Assembly (NCBI RefSeq): GCF_050920415.1
Contig: NZ_CP169309.1
Length of the DNA stretch: 64,000 bases
Direction: 5' to 3' (one strand)
DNA from: Escherichia coli
GTDB lineage: Bacteria > Pseudomonadota > Gammaproteobacteria > Enterobacterales > Enterobacteriaceae
This document shows positions 16,930 to 47,926 of this stretch, piece by piece. A model generated the notes under the pieces. That model was given only the letters and a program-made list of their open reading frames with translations. It had not been told where the DNA came from and searched no databases. Within the stretch, counting starts at the first letter, position 1. Each line of letters opens with the position of its first letter. Both the position numbers and the translations under genes were made by a program.

Positions 16930-17223
16930 ATGAAAAAAATGCTACTCGCTACTGCGCTGGCCCTGCTTATTACAGGATGTGCTCAACAGACGTTTACTGT
17001 TCAAAACAAACAGACAGCAGTAGCACCAAAGGAAACCATCACCCATCATTTCTTCGTTTCTGGAATTGGGCAGAAGAAAACTGTCGATGCAGCCAAAATT
17101 TGTGGCGGCGCAGAAAATGTTGTTAAAACAGAAACCCAGCAAACATTCGTAAATGGATTGCTCGGTTTTATTACTTTAGGCATTTATACTCCGCTGGAAG
17201 CGCGTGTGTATTGCTCAAAATAA
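16930..17223 (+). CDS. bor: Bor lipoprotein (serum-resistance lysogenic conversion protein)
   Basis: Track ORF 97 aa MKKMLLATALALLITGCAQQTFTVQNKQTAVAPKET...; lipobox LITGC; opposite strand to late genes as in lambda. Confidence 0.85.
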   Translation: MKKMLLATALALLITGCAQQTFTVQNKQTAVAPKETITHHFFVSGIGQKKTVDAAKICGGAENVVKTETQQTFVNGLLGFITLGIYTPLEARVYCSK

Positions 17224-18998: not shown

Positions 18999-20096
18999 AT
19001 GAAAAAATTAACAGTGGCAATTTCTGCTGTAGCTGCATCAGTACTGATGGCGATGTCTGCTCAGGCAGCTGAAATTTATAATAAAGACAGTAACAAGCTG
19101 GATCTGTACGGGAAAGTTAATGCTAAGCACTACTTCTCCTCTAATGATGCAGATGATGGTGATACTACTTATGCCCGTCTTGGCTTCAAAGGTGAAACCC
19201 AAATCAACGATCAGCTGACTGGTTTCGGTCAGTGGGAATATGAATTCAAAGGCAACCGCGCTGAATCTCAAGGTTCCTCCAAAGACAAAACCCGTCTTGC
19301 ATTTGCAGGCCTGAAATTCGGTGACTACGGCTCAATCGATTACGGCCGTAACTACGGTGTAGCATACGACATCGGTGCGTGGACTGACGTTCTGCCAGAA
19401 TTCGGTGGCGATACCTGGACCCAAACAGATGTGTTCATGACTGGTCGTACCACTGGTGTTGCAACCTATCGTAACAACGACTTCTTTGGTCTGGTTGATG
19501 GTCTGAACTTTGCTGCTCAGTACCAAGGCAAAAACGATCGTAGCGATTTCGATAACTACACTGAAGGTAACGGTGATGGCTTCGGTTTCTCTGCTACCTA
19601 TGAATACGAAGGATTCGGTATCGGTGCAACTTATGCGAAATCTGATCGTACCGACACTCAAGTTAATGCAGGGAAAGTTCTTCCTGAAGTATTTGCTTCC
19701 GGTAAAAATGCAGAAGTTTGGGCCGCAGGTCTGAAATATGACGCTAACAACATTTACCTGGCCACTACCTATTCTGAAACCCAGAATATGACTGTATTTG
19801 CTGATCACTTCGTTGCTAATAAAGCTCAAAACTTCGAAGCTGTTGCACAATATCAGTTCGATTTCGGTCTGCGTCCGTCCGTTGCTTACCTGCAATCTAA
19901 AGGTAAGGATCTTGGAGTATGGGGCGATCAGGACTTAGTCAAATATGTTGATGTAGGTGCAACCTATTACTTCAACAAAAATATGTCTACTTTCGTTGAT
20001 TACAAAATCAACCTGCTTGACAAAAATGACTTCACTAAAGCACTCGGTGTAAGCACTGATGACATCGTTGCTGTAGGTCTGGTTTACCAGTTCTAA
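18999..20096 (+). CDS. nmpC: outer membrane porin (NmpC/Lc-type general porin), apparently intact
   Basis: Track ORF 365 aa [46 protein letters not shown]...VGLVYQF; signal peptide and C-terminal aromatic residue typical of OmpC-family porins; lies between Q and S on the opposite strand as in DLP12/PA-2. Confidence 0.9.
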
Positions 20097-24519: not shown

Positions 24520-26022
24520 ATGACTCAAACTCCTCTATTACTTGCAATCATATTTTTATTGGTTGTTCTTGTTCTTTATATAGCTGCAATCAAACGCATC
24601 AAAAAAATACAATTAGAATTAAGTGATAGCAATCAAAAAAATGAAGAATACAAATCTCGCTTTGCAGATTATTTTAATGTAGAAGAAGAATGTAAGAAGC
24701 TTATTGAGAAAACAGAGCAAGAATGCTCCATAATAAAAGAAGAATCCCTAAAAGTAAAAGAAAATGCCAATAATGAACTAACAAACACCATTGAAAAAAT
24801 GGATGGTATCAATAAACAAATCCAAGAGCTAAGAAGAACTTATAAAGAGAAGAAAGAAATATATGATAAACTAGTAAGGCAAATTTCTATTTATTCAGAA
24901 GATGTTGAGCTAGCCGAACTAGGATTTTACGAACCTCATTTTAATTTTGAAGATTCAGAGCAATTTAAAAACAAAATAAAATCCATCAGGGATGAACAGA
25001 AATTAATGCTGCGGGATAAAACCCACTCTGGCGCAGTATATTGTACAACCCAATGGACTGTTGAAGGCTCTCGAGCAGAGGGTAAAAAAATGACAGACAG
25101 AAATATCAGGCTAACTACTAGAGCATTTAATAATGAATGTGATGCTGCAATTAGCAATTGCACGTGGAAAAACATCACTAAAATGGAAGAACGCATCACA
25201 AAGGCATTTGAGGCCATAAATAAACTAAACGAGCAAAATCACATATATATAAACACTAAATACCTCAATAAAAAACTTGAGGAATTGTGGCTTACCCATG
25301 AATATCGTGAGCAAAAACAGAAAGAAAAAGAAGAACAGGCAGAAATAAGGGCACAAATGAGAGAGGAGGAGCGTGCACAACGAGAAATAGAAAAGGCCAT
25401 GCAAGACGCAGAGGCAGAAGAGCGCCGTTATAAAAAAGCAATTGAAGCTGCAAGAAAGGAAATGGAAAAAGTTACTGGTGACATGAAGCAGCGCCTCGAA
25501 AATCGCATTGCCGAACTAGAACAGAGTTTGTCGCAGGCTGAATCAAAGCATCAAAGAGCATTATCCATGGCACAACAAACCAAACAAGGTCATGTTTATA
25601 TTATTTCGAACATAGGTTCTTTTGGGGAGAATGTTTATAAAATAGGCATGACACGACGTCTTGATCCGCAAGACCGTGTAAATGAGCTCGGTGATGCATC
25701 TGTTCCTTTTATTTTTGATGTACATGCCATGATTTATTCGGAGGACGCTCCATCATTAGAAAAAAAACTACATGATGTCTTCGATAAAAAGAGAGTCAAT
25801 CTTGTAAATCGTAGAAAAGAGTTTTTCTATGTTACTCTGGATGAGATCAAAGAAGCTGTTAAAAAACACTCTGATTCAGAAATTGAATTTATTGAGACAG
25901 CAGTCGCAAAAGACTTTAATGAGTCATTGGCTATTCGTAATCATGAAAATAAAAAAAGTGACAACAGCAACTCATCAATTATACCTGAGCGAAAAACCCC
26001 AGAGTTTGCAGATGCAATTTAA
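24520..26022 (+). CDS. membrane-anchored coiled-coil protein with C-terminal GIY-YIG/T5orf172-like domain (DUF4041-like architecture); candidate defence moron
   Basis: Track ORF 500 aa: N-terminal TM helix (LLLAIIFLLVVLVLYIAAI), ~300 residues Lys/Glu-rich coiled coil, then GHVYIISNIGSFGENVYKIGMTRRLDPQDRVNELG...EKKLHDVF...RKEFFYV; RBS AAGGAA; strongly AT-rich; opposite strand to flanking phage genes. Confidence 0.8.
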   Translation: MTQTPLLLAIIFLLVVLVLYIAAIKRIKKIQLELSDSNQKNEEYKSRFADYFNVEEECKKLIEKTEQECSIIKEESLKVKENANNELTNTIEKMDGINKQIQELRRTYKEKKEIYDKLVRQISIYSEDVELAELGFYEPHFNFEDSEQFKNKIKSIRDEQKLMLRDKTHSGAVYCTTQWTVEGSRAEGKKMTDRNIRLTTRAFNNECDAAISNCTWKNITKMEERITKAFEAINKLNEQNHIYINTKYLNKKLEELWLTHEYREQKQKEKEEQAEIRAQMREEERAQREIEKAMQDAEAEERRYKKAIEAARKEMEKVTGDMKQRLENRIAELEQSLSQAESKHQRALSMAQQTKQGHVYIISNIGSFGENVYKIGMTRRLDPQDRVNELGDASVPFIFDVHAMIYSEDAPSLEKKLHDVFDKKRVNLVNRRKEFFYVTLDEIKEAVKKHSDSEIEFIETAVAKDFNESLAIRNHENKKSDNSNSSIIPERKTPEFADAI

Positions 26023-28287: not shown

Positions 28288-28823
28288 ATTGCCCCCAGCA
28301 TGGTGGTCACCATCGCCATTAATGGACCAGCCAGATCCGGGTCCACACGAAACATCGACACAATACCTTCACTCATTTCCTTCAGTTTCTGGTGGCGTGG
28401 TGCGTTGAGAATGACAGCCTGTTTTGCCTCACTGAGTTCCTTTTCCATTTCAGCCAACCGAGTCATGAAGCTATCCTGCTCAACCAGGTAACCGCGATAT
28501 TCCAGCGGTAGTACCGCCAGAATTGCCGGGGTCAGTTCACGCACGTTATTTCGGTATTTTTCAGAATCGAATTTGTTATCGAGGAAGCGGAACAGCTTCT
28601 GGCGTGCACGGCTGACATCATCAGGGAAATCGATGGTGCCGTCGCCCTGCTCCCGATACTCATTCACAATGAGTGCGGCAACGACATCCTGATTATCTAC
28701 AGCCGACCAGGCGCGGACGGCATCACGGATTTTTTCGTGGCCTGGAGCTTGTTTTGTTTGAGAACGATTTATCACCGCAGTCGGAATAAATCCGCTAGTC
28801 TGTTGGTATGTAAGTGGTTGCAT
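28284..28823 (-). CDS. YdaT-family protein (occupies the cII position)
   Basis: Track ORF 179 aa MQPLTYQQTSGFIPTAVINRSQ...ALIVNEYREQGDGTIDFP...RELTPAILAVLPLEYRGYL; resembles Rac YdaT by recollection. Confidence 0.5.
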   Translation of the reverse strand: MQPLTYQQTSGFIPTAVINRSQTKQAPGHEKIRDAVRAWSAVDNQDVVAALIVNEYREQGDGTIDFPDDVSRARQKLFRFLDNKFDSEKYRNNVRELTPAILAVLPLEYRGYLVEQDSFMTRLAEMEKELSEAKQAVILNAPRHQKLKEMSEGIVSMFRVDPDLAGPLMAMVTTMLGAI

Positions 28824-28892
28824 AATTGACTCCTTTAGTTTGAATTGACTGTTAAGTTGATTGCTTATTGTTAAAGAGCGTGAAATGGAAAT

Positions 28893-29123
28893 TTAAGCTG
28901 CGTTCTTTTCGGTGTGTGGAAACAACTTCGGAAGATCCGGGCGAATCTGGTATGCCTTCACAACTCCACCAGTAGCCGTAACAATGCTGCCGACATGTTC
29001 AGGGGATACCTTTGCTTTGTTGTGAAGCCACTTATAGACGGCCTGCTGTGAAACTTCGCAGGCATCGCCTAGTTTCTTTTGTGAACCAACGATATTGATC
29101 GCTGTTTTGATTGCTGGGTTCAT
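28893..29123 (-). CDS. cro: Cro/YdaS-type HTH regulator (cro analogue)
   Basis: Track ORF 76 aa MNPAIKTAINIVGSQKKLGDACEVSQQAVYKWLHNKAKVSPEHVGSIVTATGG...; divergent from the repressor gene. Confidence 0.65.
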   Translation of the reverse strand: MNPAIKTAINIVGSQKKLGDACEVSQQAVYKWLHNKAKVSPEHVGSIVTATGGVVKAYQIRPDLPKLFPHTEKNAA

Positions 29124-29227
29124 AACAACCTCCGTGGTTAATCCGAATCAAGATTAAAACTATGGTTGTTTTTAGTCAACAACCATTTTCGTTTGATGAA
29201 ATAAAACCTTGGTTGTACATTTGATCT
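29124..29227. promoter_or_regulatory. immunity-region operator/promoter region between divergent cro-like and cI genes
   Basis: Inverted repeats with half-site TGGTTGT/ACAACCA (e.g. ATGGTTGTTTTTAGTCAACAACCAT); same half-site recurs in the putative OL/PL region. Confidence 0.5.
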
Positions 29228-29917
29228 ATGAAAACAACACTCTCAGAAAGACTTAAAGAAGCCAGATTAGCGCGAGGCCTTACACAAAAGGCGCTTGGGG
29301 ATTTGGTCGGGGTTAGCCAAGCTGCTATTCAGAAAATCGAAACAGGGAAAGCTAACCAAACAACTAAAATCGTGGAGATCGCGAACGCTTTGGGTGTGCG
29401 CGCAGAATGGTTATCTTCTGGCGTTGGAAATATGTCAGACAGTACAGTGCAACCAATACAATCAACTGTCAGCCATTCCAAATACTTCAAAATTGACGTT
29501 CTTGATATAGAAGTCAGTGCCGGGCCAGGTGTAATCAACCGTGAGTTTGTAGAAGTTCTACGCTCGGTTGAGTACTCGTTTGACGATGCTCGTCACATGT
29601 TCGATGGCAGGAAGGCGGAAAATATCCGCATCATTAACGTGCGAGGTGACAGCATGTCAGGGACGATCGAACCAGGTGACCTGCTGTTCGTTGATATCAC
29701 TGTTAAATCTTTCGACGGTGATGGCATCTATGCGTTTCTGTACGACGACACTGCCCATGTAAAACGTCTTCAAATGATGAAGGATAAGCTGCTGGTTATC
29801 TCTGATAACAAGAGCTACTCGCCGTGGGACCCGATCGAGAAAGACGAGATGAACCGGGTGTTCATATTCGGTAAGGTCATTGGAAGCATGCCGCAGACGT
29901 ACAGGAAGCATGGTTAA
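29228..29917 (+). CDS. cI: CI-type repressor (XRE-family HTH + S24 LexA-like autopeptidase domain)
   Basis: Track ORF 229 aa MKTTLSERLKEARLARGLTQKALGDLVGVSQAAIQKIETGK...GDSMSGTIEPGDLLFVD...KRL; HTH and Ser/Lys-dyad motifs. Confidence 0.85.
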   Translation: MKTTLSERLKEARLARGLTQKALGDLVGVSQAAIQKIETGKANQTTKIVEIANALGVRAEWLSSGVGNMSDSTVQPIQSTVSHSKYFKIDVLDIEVSAGPGVINREFVEVLRSVEYSFDDARHMFDGRKAENIRIINVRGDSMSGTIEPGDLLFVDITVKSFDGDGIYAFLYDDTAHVKRLQMMKDKLLVISDNKSYSPWDPIEKDEMNRVFIFGKVIGSMPQTYRKHG

Positions 29918-30146
29918 TTTATCTACGACTTAAGGGAGCGAAGGTTAAGGTTTATACCACTCGGATTAGATATTGCACTAAATTCTCTATAAGAACGCCA
30001 AATCTGTTTGCATATTTCAGTAAATATTCTCGTTGTTAGCTGAGATTTGTTGCTACTGTCAGCAAAATGTCCCCCTATCTCGTAGCGGTTTTTATTTCGA
30101 ATCATTATGTTAAGATGTTTCTGATTATAATGAATGGAAACATAAA

Positions 30147-30527
30147 ATGAGAAAAATCCTAATCGCTGCCATGATGGCATCTGTATTGGCTGGGTGTGCT
30201 TCTTCAGGCAACCAGCAACTCAAAAATGAAACTGAAATTAGTGTCCAGTCTAAACTTCAGGAAGGTAAAACAACCAAGAATGAGGTTAAATCTTACTTTG
30301 GTTCTCCTGATGCTGTTTCATATACTGACAGTGGAAACGAGATCTGGAAGTACGCCTTTGCAAAAGTAAAAGTTAATGGCACCACTTTTATTCCATTCTA
30401 TGGATTATTCCATAATGGAACGAACGGTACGAAAAAAGAACTTACTATTCTTTTTAACGATGACACGATTAAGAAATACACAATGTCAGAAACCCAAATA
30501 AACTCGAAATCAGGTTGGGCTGACTGA
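30147..30527 (+). CDS. lipoprotein of unknown function, located directly downstream of cI (rex position)
   Basis: Track ORF 126 aa MRKILIAAMMASVLAGCASSGNQQLKNETEISVQSKLQEGK...; lipobox LAGC; AT-rich; followed by a terminator. Confidence 0.7.
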   Translation: MRKILIAAMMASVLAGCASSGNQQLKNETEISVQSKLQEGKTTKNEVKSYFGSPDAVSYTDSGNEIWKYAFAKVKVNGTTFIPFYGLFHNGTNGTKKELTILFNDDTIKKYTMSETQINSKSGWAD

Positions 30528-30535
30528 TAATCATA

Positions 30536-30560
30536 CCCGGCAACCGCGCCGGGTTTTCTT
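30536..30560 (+). terminator. putative rho-independent terminator after the lipoprotein gene
   Basis: CCCGGCAACCGCGCCGGG followed by TTTTCTTTTCC. Confidence 0.55.
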
Positions 30561-30684
30561 TTCCTCCCCCTCATAACTCATACCGTCCAAAAAACCACCA
30601 CACCTCACTTCAGTTATCGCTATGCGATGCAAGTCACAAAATAAATCCATCCTAAATACAACCAGTTATATTTAAAACAACCGA

Positions 30685-30731
30685 CAAAACAACTTTTGTT
30701 GTTGACGATAAAACAACTATAGTTTTAAATA
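30685..30731 (+). promoter_or_regulatory. putative PL promoter with overlapping OL operators
   Basis: TTGACG (30702-30707), 17-bp spacer, TTAAAT (30725-30730); flanked by AACAACTTTTGTTGTT and AAAACAAC matching the OR half-site. Confidence 0.4.
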
Positions 30732-30803
30732 AATTCATCGCAACGACACAACGATACGGTAACCACCTGTTTCACCGTGGCGATGACCGCTTAGATCCGC
30801 AGT

Positions 30804-31214
30804 TTGAATTTCAGCAGGCTTCGGGGAGTGCGAGGGGTGAAACGGACGCGTGAACGTCGGTGTGACCAGCTGAAATCAACACAACACTTTATACCTCAGT
30901 CGCTTCAACGAGGCGGCTTAGTTATGACAACCGGCGGCCATCCACCGCCTGAATACGCGCAGAAGTCTCTATATGTTCAGCAGCCCAGCTTACGGGCAGG
31001 AGTTTTTATGGTTCATCAACATTACGGAACGCAGACCGTTAATCGCGGTGCGGTCATGCCAGGAATGCTGGTCAAACACAAAGATGGTACCTGGACTGCA
31101 TCAGCTAATTTACGCGGACGGCTTTATCTGCATCGCGGCATCGAGCGCACTTATACCCGTGATTTGCTCGTGGAAGTTTTTCTCGACGGACGCGGTAACG
31201 GCCTCAATCACTAA
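30804..31214 (+). CDS. hypothetical early-left protein; possibly an N-type antiterminator if a non-ATG start is used (ATG-initiated product would be 30924-31214)
   Basis: Track ORF 136 aa with TTG start; in-frame arginine-rich segment [12 protein letters not shown] resembles N-protein ARM motifs; first ATG ([14 protein letters not shown]...) has GAGG about 10 nt upstream; ends 75 nt before gam. Confidence 0.4.
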
Positions 31215-31289
31215 TCCCCTTTCCTGTTTTCCTAATCAGCCTGGCATTTCGCGGGCGATATTTTCACAGCCATTTTCAGGAGTTCAGCC

Positions 31290-31586
31290 ATGAACGCTTA
31301 TTACATTCAGGATCGTCTTGAGGCTCAGAGCTGGGCGCGTCACTACCAGCAGATCGCCCGTGAAGAGAAAGAGGCAGAACTGGCAGACGACATGGAAAAA
31401 GGCCTGCCCCAGCACCTGTTTGAATCGCTATGCATCGATCATTTGCAACGCCACGGGGCCAGCAAAAAAGCCATTACCCGTGCGTTTGATGACGATGTTG
31501 AGTTTCAGGAGCGCATGGCAGAACACATCCGGTACATGGTTGAAACCATTGCTCACCACCAGGTTGATATTGATTCAGAGGTATAA
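31290..31586 (+). CDS. gam: Gam (RecBCD inhibitor), short GamS form
   Basis: Track ORF 98 aa [52 protein letters not shown]... Confidence 0.9.
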
Positions 31587-34332: not shown

Positions 34333-34675
34333 GGCCTGTCAGTTTCTTAAGATATCCAGACCAACCGCCACCAACTGGATACGAACAGGCCGCCTACAGG
34401 CAACACGTAAAGATCCAACCAAGCCAAAATCTCCTTACCTCACAACACGGCAAGCCTGCATTGCGGCGCTTCAGTCTCCGCTGCATACTGTCCAGGTGAG
34501 CGCGGGTGATGGCATAACAGAGGAAAGAAAATGTCACTCTTCCGCAGAAATGAAATATGGTATGCCTCGTATTCGCTCCCGGGCGGGAAACGAATTAAGG
34601 AATCTCTTGGCACAAAGGACAAGCGGCAAGCTCAGGAGTTGCACGACAAGCGAAAAGCAGAACTCTGGCGAGTAG
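34304..34675 (+). CDS. xis: excisionase-like protein (AlpA/Xis-type HTH), overlapping int start
   Basis: Track ORF 34274-34675; [37 protein letters not shown]... has the HTH pattern of AlpA/Xis-family excisionases; the open frame runs ~145 nt into int. Confidence 0.5.
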
Positions 34676-35694
34676 AAAAGCTAGGGGATTTACCTGATGT
34701 CACTTTTGAAGAGGCCTGCCTAAGATGGCTTGAGGAAAAAGCTGATAAAAAATCTCTCGATTCAGATAAAAGCCGGATTGAGTTCTGGCTTGAACATTTT
34801 GAGGGTATAAGGCTTAAAGATATCTCGGAGGCAAAGATTTACTCTGCTGTAAGCAGAATGCATAACAGAAAGACGAAAGAAATATGGAAACAGAAAGTTC
34901 AGGCCGCCATCAGGAAAGGTAAAGAACTGCCTGTTTATGAACCAAAGCCAGTATCAACTCAGACAAAGGCAAAGCATCTTGCCATGATAAAGGCCATTCT
35001 CCGTGCTGCAGAACGCGACTGGAAGTGGCTGGAAAAAGCGCCTGTCATCAAGATACCAGCGGTCAGAAACAAGCGAGTCAGATGGCTGGAAAAGGAGGAA
35101 GCAAAACGCCTTATTGATGAGTGCCCCGAACCACTGAAATCTGTCGTCAAGTTTGCGCTGGCAACTGGTCTGAGAAAGTCGAACATCATAAATCTGGAAT
35201 GGCAACAAATCGACATGCAGCGACGAGTTGCCTGGGTGAATCCAGAAGAGAGCAAATCAAACCGCGCCATTGGTGTGGCGCTAAACGATACCGCCTGTAA
35301 AGTGTTGCGTGATCAAATAGGCAAGCATCACAAATGGGTGTTTGTACATACCAAGGCGGCTAAGCGAGCAGATGGAACATCAACGCCTGCGGTCAGGAAG
35401 ATGCGCATCGACAGCAAGACATCATGGCTATCAGCTTGTCGTCGTGCAGGAATTGAAGATTTCCGTTTCCATGACCTCAGACACACCTGGGCAAGCTGGC
35501 TGATTCAGTCAGGCGTCCCATTATCAGTGCTTCAGGAAATGGGCGGATGGGAGTCCATAGAAATGGTTCGTAGGTATGCTCACCTTGCGCCTAATCATTT
35601 GACAGAGCATGCGAGGAAAATAGACGACATTTTTGGTGATAATGTCCCAAATATGTCCCACTCTGGAATTATGGAGGATATAAAGAAGGCGTAA
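34531..35694 (+). CDS. int: tyrosine site-specific integrase
   Basis: Track ORF 387 aa [47 protein letters not shown]...[39 protein letters not shown]; catalytic R..HxxR..Y signature; ends 15 nt from the tRNA 3' end. Confidence 0.95.
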
Positions 35695-38209: not shown

Positions 38210-40819
38210 TTATGAGCCAGGATGTGTGCAAACTGCCGAAATAACAGTGACGGCTTGCTGTAAGCTTTGCTTCGGCAATACATAGTGCGCAATGCAGCGT
38301 GAGTTCGCGCCGTCTCCCCACTGAACCAGTAATTCACCAGACAATGGCGCACCACTTAAATAAACTTGCCCGTCATCACCCACCATACTGGTTATTCCGG
38401 TACTGTTTTCCCGTACCAGTGATCCAAACGGCACCGGTTTTCCGCCCTGGGTAACGGTAATGAGCGCCCGCACGCCTATGCGGGTATCAAAATTGGCACG
38501 AACCAACGCGCCTTGCGTCGGCACAACGCTGCTAATATTTTTTTCAACATCGATGGAATTCCCCATCGTATTGGTATCAAGCGCGATACGGTTATACCGA
38601 TAAACCGTGGCATACGGCATCACCGCATAGCCGCGCCAGTCGGTTAAAATTCCAGTTTGATTTTCAATGCGTACACCGCCTGCGCCAGGCGCTTTAATCA
38701 AAACATTGGTATCCCCTAAAGGCTGGCTCAGCGTTATACCATTTTCATGCCCGACCACACCGCCAGACAGCTGCCAGTTAACGTCATGTTGATCGCGGTC
38801 GTAGTTATACCCGACCCCCAGCGTACCGTAAGCGGCCTGCCAGTTTGCCGTGGCGCTGCCCGTGTACCCATTATTCGAGGTATCGCCCTGGCTTACGTGA
38901 TAACTCAGGTTGTGGCCTTCCAGTAAGGTCCCACCAACGCCTGCCAGCCAGCTATTTTGCCCGTTGCTGTTACGGTTGGCGTTAAAGGAGGCATAAGCGC
39001 GATCGAGCGCATTTTCCCGGGTGTAGCGACGTTTGGTCAGAACATTGAAAGGCACTGAAACATTAAGTCCGACAATACGTTCGTTATCGGGGATCCCTAC
39101 AGATTCATTCCACGAAAATGAGAGTGAATAACTGATGCCAACCCAGCTGCTGGTATACCCCACCTGATACCAGGTATCTGAATCCGAAGTATTCCAGTAT
39201 TTTTGATGGGTACCAGAAATATAAAGCGAGCCAAAGTCATTAAGTGATTGTGAAATATTTAACTGCAAACGGTCTTTACGACTAAAGCGTAAATTGTGGT
39301 AATTCACGATTATCGGTTCATCGCGATGCTCACCGTCATAATCGTAATCATATTCGTACCCCTCCATTCGACGATACGCAACATCATCAAGGGTATAAAA
39401 ACCTTGTGTCGAATAGCGGTAACCCATTAACTGAAAATTGGTGCCGAAAGTGTTCATTGATTTCGCATAGAGGAAGCGAATGGAATCCCCCTCATGACGA
39501 CTGTCGTCGGCTAACTGACTGCGCGCATGCGTTACATCCAGCGACACTGCGCCCCAGTTCCCGAGGTTGCGCCCCAGCCCTAACAAAAAGGCGGTGTAAT
39601 TTGCAGATAATTGCGTCCCGCCGTAGGCAGTAAATTCCTGTGGTAAACCGCCGAGTGCCGTGCCCTGAAAAAAGAAAGGCGACGATTGCTGACTATTACC
39701 GCTACGAAAATCGCCCGCCGTCAGGTCAAATTTGAAACGCCCTTCGCGTTGTAAAATTGGCACTGTTGAATACGGAATAGTGTAATTCTGCTGATTACCA
39801 TCGCGTTCGTCGATGGTGACGTCCAGATCGCCATTTGAAGATGTCGGGTGCAAATCTGTAATTTCGAAAGCGCCGGGGGAAACATAGCTTTGATAGATAA
39901 TAAAACCATTTTGCCGAATCGTTAGCTGGGCCGCCGTACGGGCAATCCCACGTACCGTTGGGGCAAACCCTTGCTGGCTATCTGGATACATATTATCAGA
40001 AGAATAAAGCCGTACACCTCGAAATCCGACGCCATCGAAAATATCACTCCCTGTATTACCGTCTCCCATTACCAGTTCACTTTTCAGCGGAATAATGGCG
40101 CGCTGTACCCAGGTGCCAATATTATTCCACTGTTCTGAATGATATCCATTTCCGCGAAAATAGTTCCAGGAACCATTGTTGCGTAAACGCCACGGGCCAA
40201 TATTAATCCCACTAAGTTCACTAAAAAAATAGCTATCGTTACCATTACCTCTGTTACCGGTGAAATTATAATTCAGGAGTAAAGCAGGAATACCTTCATC
40301 CCACTCTTCAGGCGGAATGTAACCGTGAGCGCTACTCAACAACGCTATCTGAGGAATAGTGATGTTCAGGCGCATCGCTGCAAAATCAAAGTTAATTGTG
40401 GCATCAGGTACAGCTTTCAGTAAATTAATGCATTTATTATTTTGCTGCTGGGCTAACTCGGGGAATGCACTGCTATTAAGGCCAATTCGTTCAAGGAGTG
40501 CCTGGTTAAAACAAGGCATTAACCCACCTGATTTATCACCTGTATTTACTGTCGTCGATTCAAATACGATATCCTGTGAACCAATGAACTCATCATTACG
40601 CCAGAGATCCACCCGATACACACCCGCAGGTTGATGATTACCTCTCTCAAAGCGCGATAAATCAGCAACGGATGTGCCATTCTCTAATAAAAATGCCGGG
40701 TTGAAATAACTTTCCGCATAACTTAAAAAGGAGGGTAAAATGGCAAGAGATGAATAACAAATTCCGGCCAGACACCAGGTATACCTCTGCGGAATATCCG
40801 TAGTAGTGGGTATTTTCAT
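38210..40819 (-). CDS. sfmD: fimbrial outer membrane usher SfmD
   Basis: Track ORF 869 aa [45 protein letters not shown]... Confidence 0.9.
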
Positions 40820-46576: not shown

Positions 46577-47299
46577 GTGGCGACACTCTTTATTGCAGAT
46601 CTTCATCTCTGCGTGGAAGAACCGGCGATCACCGCCGGTTTTCTGCGTTTTTTAGCGGGGGAAGCCCGCAAGGCCGACGCGCTGTATATTCTTGGCGATC
46701 TGTTTGAAGCATGGATTGGCGATGACGATCCCAACCCACTCCATCGCCAGATGGCCGCAGCGATCAAAGCGGTATCCGATTCCGGCGTTCCCTGTTATTT
46801 CATTCATGGCAACCGTGATTTTCTGCTCGGCAAACGCTTTGCCCGTGAAAGCGGGATGACGTTATTGCCGGAAGAAAAAGTGCTCGAACTTTATGGCCGT
46901 CGGGTGCTGATTATGCATGGCGACACGCTGTGCACCGATGACATCGGTTATCAGGCTTTTCGCGCCAAAGTCCACAAGCCGTGGCTGCAAACGCTATTCC
47001 TCGCCCTGCCGTTGTTTGTGCGCAAACGCATTGCCGCGCGAATGCGAGCGAACAGCAAAGAAGCCAACAGCAGTAAATCGCTGGCGATCATGGACGTTAA
47101 CCAAAACGCGGTGGTCAGTGCGATGGAAAAGCATCAGGTGCAATGGTTGATTCACGGGCATACGCATCGCCCGGCGGTGCATGAACTGATCGCCAATCAG
47201 CAACCTGCTTTTCGTGTCGTGTTGGGTGCCTGGCATACGGAAGGTTCGATGGTGAAAGTCACGGCAGATGACGTTGAGTTGATCCATTTTCCATTTTAA
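46577..47299 (+). CDS. lpxH: UDP-2,3-diacylglucosamine diphosphatase
   Basis: Track ORF 240 aa, GTG start, [50 protein letters not shown]... Confidence 0.95.
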
Positions 47300-47328
47300 A
47301 AAACGCGCAACTTTGCTGATTTCATAGC

Positions 47329-47346
47329 CGCGCAACCGTTTTCCTT
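47329..47346 (+). promoter_or_regulatory. putative PurR operator (PUR box) upstream of purEK
   Basis: CGCGCAACCGTTTTCCTT resembles the PurR box consensus ACGCAAACGTTTTCNT; ~70 nt upstream of purE. Confidence 0.45.
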
Positions 47347-47416
47347 GCTCTCTTTCCGTGCTATTCTCTGTGCCCTCTAAAGCCGAGAGTTGTGCACCAC
47401 AGGAGTTTTAAGACGC

Positions 47417-47926
47417 ATGTCTTCCCGCAATAATCCGGCGCGTGTCGCCATCGTGATGGGGTCCAAAAGCGACTGGGCTACCATGCAGTTCGCCGCCGAA
47501 ATCTTCGAAATCCTGAATGTCCCGCACCACGTTGAAGTGGTTTCTGCTCACCGCACCCCCGATAAACTGTTCAGCTTCGCCGAAAGTGCCGAAGAGAACG
47601 GTTATCAGGTAATTATTGCGGGCGCAGGCGGCGCAGCGCACCTGCCGGGCATGATTGCCGCCAAAACGCTGGTGCCAGTGCTGGGTGTGCCAGTACAGAG
47701 CGCCGCACTGAGCGGTGTCGATAGCCTCTACTCCATCGTACAAATGCCGCGCGGCATTCCGGTGGGTACGCTGGCGATTGGTAAAGCTGGCGCGGCAAAC
47801 GCGGCGTTACTGGCAGCACAAATTCTTGCGACTCATGATAAAGAACTGCACCAGCGTTTGAATGACTGGCGCAAAGCACAAACTGATGAAGTGCTGGAAA
47901 ACCCGGACCCGCGAGGTGCGGCATGA
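47417..47926 (+). CDS. purE: N5-carboxyaminoimidazole ribonucleotide mutase
   Basis: Track ORF 47390-47926; start at ATG 47417 gives 169 aa [49 protein letters not shown]... Confidence 0.95.

Follow-up and report, generated by a model that had tools for sequence, protein, structure and literature searches.

An SmpA/OmlA-like lipoprotein gene in the rex position of a lambda-like Escherichia coli prophage

Lambda rexAB and the BstA-type defence genes lie downstream of the prophage repressor gene and are expressed in the lysogen. Here we analyse a gene that occupies the same position in a lambda-like prophage of Escherichia coli. It is located in a stretch of 64,000 nucleotides (nt) of contig NZ_CP169309.1 (RefSeq assembly GCF_050920415.1), referred to as the window throughout, and encodes a lipoprotein of 126 amino acids (aa) with a BamE/SmpA-OmlA type of fold. 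We hold with high confidence to the descriptive part of our explanation, which comprises the gene with its fold, position and mobility, as well as the strong purifying selection acting on it. A role in superinfection exclusion is put forward tentatively.

Several proteins of this fold have been described. BamE contacts BamA and BamD through its N-terminal region and strands beta1/beta2 (PMC12523085), and its binding sites comprise POTRA5 of BamA, the periplasmic turns of the barrel, and BamD (PMC13067283). [quoted passage not shown] In Salmonella Enteritidis, the excisable island ROD21 carries SEN1984, a 378-nt gene whose product received a BamE-like call from Phyre2 (PMC10655114). Among the lipoproteins encoded by phages, a preprint describes Llp as an inner-leaflet outer-membrane lipoprotein that binds FhuA (bioRxiv 10.64898/2026.03.26.714494).

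The lipoprotein gene and its slot

The predicted protein begins with MRKILIAAMMASVLAGC followed by ASSGN. The first-pass annotation, which was made from the sequence alone, had reported an open reading frame (ORF) of 126 aa with a LAGC lipobox and without Asp at +2, and both the ORF and our reading of the sequence bear this out: Cys17 is followed by Ala at +2 and Ser at +3, so that the Asp inner-membrane retention signal is missing. According to the Lol sorting rule the residue at +2 sets the membrane destination of a lipoprotein, with Ala leading to the outer membrane. Ala at +2 therefore predicts outer-membrane sorting of the prophage lipoprotein. The gene is co-oriented with the cI-type repressor gene and separated from its stop codon by 229 nt, close to the 230 bp first given. 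The GC content is 38.1% in the gene (36% at third codon positions), 34% in the spacer, 47% in cI and 50% in the prophage part of the window, in agreement with the AT-richness seen earlier. An ATG-initiated ORF of 85 aa on the minus strand (29923-30180) overlaps the start of the gene; it lies in non-conserved AT-rich DNA and is probably spurious.

Comparison with related phages delimits the insertion. The region tested (window 29100-30700) is 100% identical to Escherichia phage PhiR26_1 (PV340555.1). Phages PhiR34_1 and PhiR5_1 are about 96% identical to the window across cro-cI and about 95.5% identical across the flank that holds the terminator and the left operator and promoter (OL/pL), and the lipoprotein gene is absent in both. 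Homology to the two phages is lost at the stop codon of cI (29913/29917) and returns at 30536/30528. In PhiR34_1 the interval is filled by 125 nt of unrelated spacer with no gene, and in PhiR5_1 by a pair annotated as HipA toxin/HipD antitoxin. The segment from the cI stop to the shared terminator (29918-30536) looks like a swap-in slot, a hotspot of this phage group for defence or accessory genes. Homology to the copy in Salmonella phage S107 covers 30094 to 30537 and includes about 50 nt upstream of the ATG.

The gene has the properties of a moron. It is present in one and absent in others of a set of near-identical phages, its base composition is unlike that of the surroundings (38% vs 50% GC), and it has a promoter and a terminator of its own, the latter two recognised in silico only. 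Judged by these features, the lipoprotein gene is an autonomous moron cassette composed of an extended -10 promoter, the gene and a terminator of the phage backbone.

The promoter is predicted from conservation. The upstream block aTGtTAAGATGtTTCtGATTatAATgAATGGAAACATAAA is nearly invariant across lineages whose synonymous sites are saturated, and the pattern TGnTAnnAT is found 31 nt upstream of the ATG in all lineages compared. Its core reads TGtTAGCAT in a chromosomal copy of Kluyvera and TGtTAATAT in a 48%-identical homologue from Klebsiella. We infer that the conserved block is the extended -10 promoter of the lipoprotein gene itself. In other prophages the hairpin and T-run of the upstream gene stand directly before the promoter block (judged by eye, and folded only for locus L008); in the prophage studied here, the T-run alone survives of the terminator that precedes the cassette elsewhere.

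We found no plus-strand terminator between cI and the lipoprotein gene, where the fold of the spacer is weak (z = -0.39), so that read-through from the maintenance promoter and co-transcription with cI are plausible. BLAST of the spacer against all loci fetched for comparison returned self-matches only, and no coding remnant was detected in it. Downstream of the gene, folding supports the hairpin plus T-run terminator proposed earlier (-14.1 kcal/mol, z = -3.3), with 0/200 shuffles as stable. This terminator ends the cI/lipoprotein transcription unit. It is part of the phage backbone and not of the cargo, because the homology to PhiR34_1 and PhiR5_1, which share it without having the lipoprotein gene, resumes at this point. 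Together, these in-silico signals make expression of the gene in the lysogen likely. The first-pass annotation had inferred expression in the lysogen. The slot and the lack of an intervening terminator agree with this part of the claim, but the conserved promoter points to an autonomous moron and not to a simple gene of the cI operon.

The rex position follows from the operators. The prophage extends from position 1 to about 35.7 kb of the window, with ren-P-O-cII-cro on the minus strand and cI, the lipoprotein gene, the terminator and kil-gam-bet-exo on the plus strand. The cI product matches PHROG 4 'transcriptional repressor' with E = 9e-73 and 'CI-like repressor' with E = 2e-46, and the PhiR26_1 record annotates the same gene as cI. 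The operator-like word AAAACAAC occurs in 11 copies in the window vs 3.5 expected, with clusters between cro and cI (29165, 29231) and after the terminator (30674, 30686, 30710; span 30674-30717). Based on motif clustering and gene order, we infer that the second cluster belongs to the operator and promoter pL at the start of the kil-gam-bet-exo operon. Because the clusters lie on both sides, the lipoprotein gene is placed between cI and OL/pL, which is the rex position of lambda; the word clusters and the TTGACG -35 element thus agree with the placement first suggested. In window 30732-30836, between the pL-like promoter and kil, a gene for an N-like antiterminator was not found, and phages of the PhiR, Perceval and 4A7 types share this N-less arrangement. 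Kil as annotated is extended by 48 residues at its N-terminus, and the leader shows ordinary folding (z = 0.33).

Two further signals were noted around the start codon. The RcsB box has the consensus TN(G/A)GAN4TC(T/C)NA (PMC7913699), and the only two matches in the 64-kb window, at 30111-30124 and 30148-30161, flank the start codon of the lipoprotein gene. The first of them is identical to the osmB box of Salmonella at 12/14 positions. We rejected control by RcsB: the Kluyvera and Klebsiella copies retain the extended -10 but no longer match the RcsB consensus, the box coincides in part with the -10, and conservation does not extend to the second box. The fit is either fortuitous or a weak hint, and probably results from the presence of the -10 element. 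Separately, an 8-bp palindrome, ATTATAAT, is located at 30124-30131, where other lineages have GATTGCAATC, a symmetric change. In this phage only, ATTATAAT gives rise to a strong promoter-like site on the minus strand, TTCTCA-18-TATAAT (10/12; 30153-30124), which is directed toward cI and could yield an antisense transcript. An Rfam scan of 28800-31400 resulted in sub-threshold noise only.

Fold, family and constraint

The family had not been recognised at first, but it is recognisable as one with the BamE/SmpA-OmlA fold, known as the 'SEN1984 family'. The Pfam model PF04355 (BamE) matches the prophage lipoprotein weakly (20.9 bits, E = 3e-4) and is matched by 33/58 diverse family members with the same threshold. 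Alignment of the family profile with E. coli BamE by hhalign gave a probability of 90% and E = 1.6e-6, with 23% identity over 90 columns. The AF2 model has a pLDDT of 85.7, the loop of residues 77-93 being the least confident part, and the alpha-alpha-beta-beta-beta fold of SmpA/OmlA proteins is present on a lipoprotein anchor. All structure matches in AFDB and BFVD are unannotated 'SmpA/OmlA lipoproteins', and in the viral structure library the only matches are SmpA/OmlA lipoproteins of Pseudomonas phages PP9W2 and B3.

Other comparisons separate the protein from BamE. An NCBIfam scan of the prophage lipoprotein returned no BamE model even at E <= 1. In contrast to a housekeeping gene of near-universal occurrence, the gene sits in a prophage cargo slot, and its exact region is found in 68/5426 complete E. 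coli genomes, on the chromosome in every case. In a region-level comparison, the parts that contact POTRA5 of BamA and BamD are not conserved. Whereas BamE has YRPDINQGN in the N-terminal segment after the anchor, the family shows C-x-S-x-G-N..L..E-T there; Gly21 is invariant, and at least 90% of the proteins have Asn22. A conserved F-I-P motif, whose Pro83 is shared by at least 90% of the family, lies in the family-specific loop that separates beta1 from beta2. This loop is without counterpart in BamE and may serve as a partner-binding site. The prophage lipoprotein further differs from BamE in its longer strands and in being carried by mobile elements instead of at a housekeeping locus. As the BamA/BamD-contact regions have diverged, the protein is probably not a subunit of the machinery for assembly of beta-barrels (BAM). 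On sequence and predicted structure it is a member of the SmpA/OmlA superfamily and not BamE proper, and RefSeq, in using the product name 'outer membrane protein assembly factor BamE', probably over-annotates it. The first-pass annotation had named homology to a housekeeping lipoprotein as evidence against a phage-related role; what we find is a remote likeness to BamE (23%) with contact regions that are not conserved, which does not amount to such counter-evidence.

The protein was assigned to PHROG 3135 (unknown function), or the 'SEN1984 family', by a full-length match (E = 3e-48, residues 1-124), the lipobox and a length of about 126-133 aa. PGAP labels family members either 'SEN1984 family lipoprotein', as for the identical E. 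coli gene, or 'BamE'. A word-indexed search resulted in 228 homologues, nearly all of 126 aa and 70-99% identical, from Citrobacter, Enterobacter, Cronobacter, Leclercia, Kluyvera and E. coli. The exhaustive search of cluster representatives (clusters at 50% identity) resulted in 854 clusters at E <= 1e-3. Cys17, Gly21, Gly52 and Gly123 are invariant in 58 family members. Pairwise comparison of four lineages showed a nucleotide identity of 74-79% and a rate of nonsynonymous substitution (dN) of 0.05-0.14, with saturated synonymous substitution (dS > 1.6) and dN/dS of 0.04-0.06. Longer family members have only Pro/Ala-rich linkers, tandem repeats or unknown tails added, and no informative Pfam domain is fused to them.

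Among close relatives (77-85% identity), 13 of the 14 loci examined have the gene downstream of, and co-oriented with, a cI-type repressor gene. These are Salmonella phage S107, four Citrobacter, four Enterobacter-type and three Cronobacter prophages, and the prophage studied here. They span several immunity types, the three Cronobacter prophages differ in cro/cI, and one or two accessory genes sometimes intervene. Between the repressor gene and the lipoprotein gene we observed further, unannotated genes, namely one for a 287-aa NYN-domain protein in Cronobacter (L027-L029, 3039-3902), one for a 302-aa protein in loci L005-L007 (7003-7911), a pair encoding 136 and 90 aa in Citrobacter (L004, 7113-7917), and a pair encoding 255 and 62 aa in Salmonella phage S107 (L002, 2989-3911). 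It is possible that these are defence genes. In most other prophages the lipoprotein gene is followed by a small convergent gene on the minus strand (63-75 aa; example pattern MKEEADELKE..GKRKAV.N.IHKG.LRD), which is absent in this window. No linked partner gene is constant across the loci examined, and the upstream neighbours vary.

Further family members occupy other sites. Tail modules hold the gene in Klebsiella phage RAH1, in a circular element of Klebsiella, in a prophage of Yersinia and in Pseudomonas PP9W2, where it is placed upstream of the tape-measure gene, usually with arc/ant/Rha genes as neighbours. The copy of Alteromonas P24 is located between head and tail genes, and that of Pseudomonas phage Lodos adjoins the integrase gene. 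Copies are also carried by 135 plasmids, 111 of them from Burkholderia and 100 of them conjugative. On the Burkholderia glumae plasmid p4_YH67 (L025, 6986-14227), the homologue is found about 2 kb upstream of a gene for a YadA-like trimeric autotransporter on the same strand; this arrangement resembles the pairing of TpgA with AtaA and is a possible sign that a barrel protein serves as partner in that lineage. In Kluyvera (L030-L032, 4001-4381), the flagellar region has a copy of 77% identity as an insert of one gene between yedD and fliE; it has the same promoter block and no phage genes around it. Either the phage gene derives from this copy, or the copy has been domesticated. Homologues of 37-48% identity stand in ordinary neighbourhoods in Gilliamella, on an alphaproteobacterial chromosome (a cluster that includes Vannielia litorea) and in another genome.

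Table 1. Coordinates of the lipoprotein gene, its signals and surrounding features (window positions unless a locus or record is named)
Feature	Position	Strand	Remarks
Lipoprotein gene	30147..30527	+	126 aa, ATG start; BamE/SmpA-OmlA fold, 'SEN1984 family lipoprotein', PHROG 3135
Signal peptide with lipobox LAGC	30147..30197	+	L-A-G-C = residues 14-17; Cys17 codon 30195-30197
Family-specific loop, residues 77-93	30375..30425	+	11-residue insertion relative to E. coli BamE (hhalign), between beta1 and beta2
AT-rich spacer, 176 nt	29918..30093	+	No terminator, no credible ORF
Cassette 5' end	30094..30146	+	T-run remnant 30090-30098, extended -10, leader, Shine-Dalgarno sequence
Extended -10	TG 30108-30109, TAAGAT 30111-30116	+	Predicted from conservation
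Predicted transcription start	~30123		Leader of 24 nt; GGAA Shine-Dalgarno sequence 30136-30139, 7 nt before ATG
Intrinsic terminator	30535..30564	+	Stem 30535-30554, 7 pairs (6 G-C), then TTTTCTTTTCC
cI-type repressor gene	29228..29917	+	Helix-turn-helix and S24 peptidase; upstream of and co-oriented with lipoprotein gene
OL/pL-like region	30670..30731	+	Three AAAACAAC words, TTGACG -35 (30702-30707), AT-rich -10
Integrase gene	34531-35694		Followed by host chromosome
Envelope/defence morons in window	18999-20096, 24520-26022, ~16930-17223		OmpD-like porin, PD-lambda-1, Bor
Envelope/defence morons in PhiR26_1 record	39522-40121, 46781-47734		Lom, omptin protease
Small convergent gene in other prophages	L004 8413-8619, L008 8510-8722, L009 8410-8622, L002 4423-4650, L027 4420-4611	-	

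Candidate functions of the lipoprotein

By analogy with known systems, we tentatively favour a function in which the prophage lipoprotein binds an outer-membrane barrel from the periplasm and blocks adsorption or DNA entry of superinfecting phages. Expression in the lysogen would be driven by the gene's own promoter, acting constitutively, to which read-through of the cI transcript would add in this phage. The product would be sorted by the Lol system into the outer membrane's inner leaflet, where it would face the periplasm with a compact fold close to the membrane. There, like BamE and TpgA-N, the two characterised relatives of this fold, it would bind a conserved beta-barrel protein or complex of the outer membrane on the periplasmic side, with the N-terminal S-G-N..L..E-T segment and the F-I-P loop as the likely contact surfaces. 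The pay-off would be superinfection exclusion, in which a receptor or DNA-entry route is locked or masked from inside, as by T5 Llp on FhuA or by Cor.

Several observations are consistent with exclusion. Since no flexible tether separates the anchor from the domain, the protein should sit flat under the outer membrane, where such contacts form. A dN/dS of 0.04-0.06 between genera speaks for a host partner that is itself conserved, and against an arms race with proteins of phages. The repressor-adjacent slot holds defence-like cargo elsewhere (the HipA-like pair and the NYN-domain protein), and family members are found at other common accessory-gene sites, beside an integrase gene and in immI-like islands of the tail module. 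The exclusion moron gp15 of HK97 has a similar position in the tail module.

A number of points weigh against this function. Functional work on the family did not emerge from our literature search, which covered morons, exclusion and phage lipoproteins of the BamE-like or SmpA/OmlA type, and PADLOC matched the lipoprotein with 0 families at E <= 1. The match to the PHROG of Cor covers the signal peptide only (E = 0.066), with no homology beyond it. The depositors of PhiR26_1 gave names to defence genes in these genomes, yet the lipoprotein gene was entered as 'hypothetical protein, putative lipoprotein'. The genes of known exclusion lipoproteins usually stand beside a receptor-binding gene, whereas that of the prophage lipoprotein does not. 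No partner protein was identified. Finally, the copies on chromosomes, on Burkholderia conjugative plasmids and on ROD21 fit a general envelope role at least as well.

Such a role is the strongest rival. We consider lysogenic conversion, in which the lipoprotein strengthens or modifies the envelope in the manner of Bor/Iss, TraT or OsmE without a direct effect on phages, to be nearly as likely as exclusion, although it too is held only tentatively. The traits concerned would be tolerance of serum, detergent, osmotic stress or antimicrobial peptides, colonisation, and virulence. The spread of the family beyond phages speaks for conversion, as it includes SEN1984 on ROD21, the 135 plasmids (100 conjugative) and the chromosomal sites in Kluyvera, Gilliamella and Vannielia; so does the very strong purifying selection across genera. 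In addition, the prophage is unusually rich in envelope and defence morons: an OmpD-like porin, PD-lambda-1 and Bor in the window, and Lom and an omptin protease outside it, so that PhiR26_1 is loaded with other envelope morons (Bor, Lom, the porin and omptin). PD-lambda-1 is the membrane nuclease SNIPE (PMC13190303). However, no member of the family has a known phenotype, SEN1984 included, and conversion leaves unexplained the preference for the repressor-adjacent slot, where sibling phages have defence-like cargo.

The resemblance to BamE allows a further, unlikely explanation, namely that the protein is a mimic which docks on POTRA5 of BamA and on BamD in place of or beside host BamE in lysogens. 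Outer-membrane protein assembly, RcsF handling or Rcs signalling would then be retuned to the benefit of the prophage: barrel receptors might be depleted or masked, BamA-dependent phages or toxins of contact-dependent inhibition (CDI) blocked, or the prophage's own porin, Lom and omptin favoured. The sequence homology is real (hhalign E = 1.6e-6; Pfam BamE), PGAP uses the name BamE, and the prophage has at least three beta-barrel morons. Against mimicry, YRPDINQGN is replaced by another conserved motif, a conserved loop of 11 residues is inserted between beta1 and beta2, and there is no NCBIfam BamE match. Furthermore, TpgA-N shows that the SmpA/OmlA fold can serve partners other than BAM (PMC12523085).

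Slightly less probable still is a periplasmic inhibitor or immunity protein directed against an effector of a type VI secretion system (T6SS) or of CDI, a colicin domain or a phage muralytic protein, comparable to BLIP and BtiO, which have the same fold. Immunity proteins are normally linked to their effector, but no cognate toxin gene adjoins the lipoprotein gene in any context examined, and a dN/dS of about 0.05 gives no sign of an arms race. That the ORF is not a functional gene, being a chance ORF, a decaying fragment or host bamE, is very improbable: the weak Shine-Dalgarno sequence, the AT-rich region and the overlapping minus-strand ORF of 85 aa are outweighed by full-length 126-aa homologues in many genera, dN/dS of 0.04-0.06, the confident fold prediction and the conserved promoter block, and host bamE is further contradicted by the location inside a prophage and the occurrence in only 68/5426 complete E. 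coli genomes.

Surface-altering add-on genes of prophages determine the range of phages, and sometimes of host defences, that a lysogen withstands. The gene is worth testing in this respect, being widespread in prophages of Enterobacteriaceae, under strong constraint, equipped with a predicted promoter of its own, placed in the rex slot and a member of a fold family that grips barrels. If superinfection exclusion is true, the protein would form a new structural class beside the receptor-masking lipoproteins Cor and Llp and would point to the receptor or entry route that is protected. Should it affect BAM or the robustness of the envelope instead, lysogenic conversion would gain a new route, and the copies on conjugative plasmids and ROD21 would probably have the same function. 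With BamE mimicry, a phage would for the first time be seen to hijack the BAM complex by means of a subunit look-alike. The analysis also flags 'outer membrane protein assembly factor BamE' as a probable mis-annotation in the databases.

Comparison with known systems

With respect to location, the closest system is rexAB, which occupies the same slot between cI and OL/pL, within or appended to the maintenance transcription unit; the lipoprotein gene shares this location. In their mode of action RexAB and BstA differ from it, as they are cytoplasmic or inner-membrane abortive infection systems, while the prophage gene encodes a single exported lipoprotein without a PADLOC match. Neither a two-protein system of the RexA/RexB type nor a match to any defence protein catalogued in PADLOC was found.

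In type of product, the lipoprotein resembles Cor (phi80/N15/HK022) and Llp (T5), which are likewise small outer-membrane lipoproteins encoded by phages. It is larger than these, has a different fold and is encoded beside cI and not beside receptor-binding or early genes. No sequence or fold homology to this type was detected in matching against Cor, Llp not having been searched as such. Lambda Bor and plasmid TraT are likewise outer-membrane lipoproteins of mobile elements which are expressed in the carrier and alter its surface. Homology to Bor or TraT was not detected, with no search aimed at Bor, TraT or Llp as such, and PhiR26_1 already has a separate bor gene.

SEN1984, to which the protein is likened by its PGAP label and not by measured identity, sits on a mobilisable island and not in a prophage immunity region. 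As SEN1984 has no known function, the family name adds no mechanism. [quoted passage not shown] Tol 5 has the same fold, but TpgA also has a C-terminal OmpA_C peptidoglycan-binding domain and is not a lipoprotein moron, and its gene shares an operon with that of its partner, unlike the prophage lipoprotein gene, which has no linked partner gene. A moron-encoded outer-membrane lipoprotein is thus of a familiar kind, and what sets this one apart is a fold family not previously tied to phage biology.

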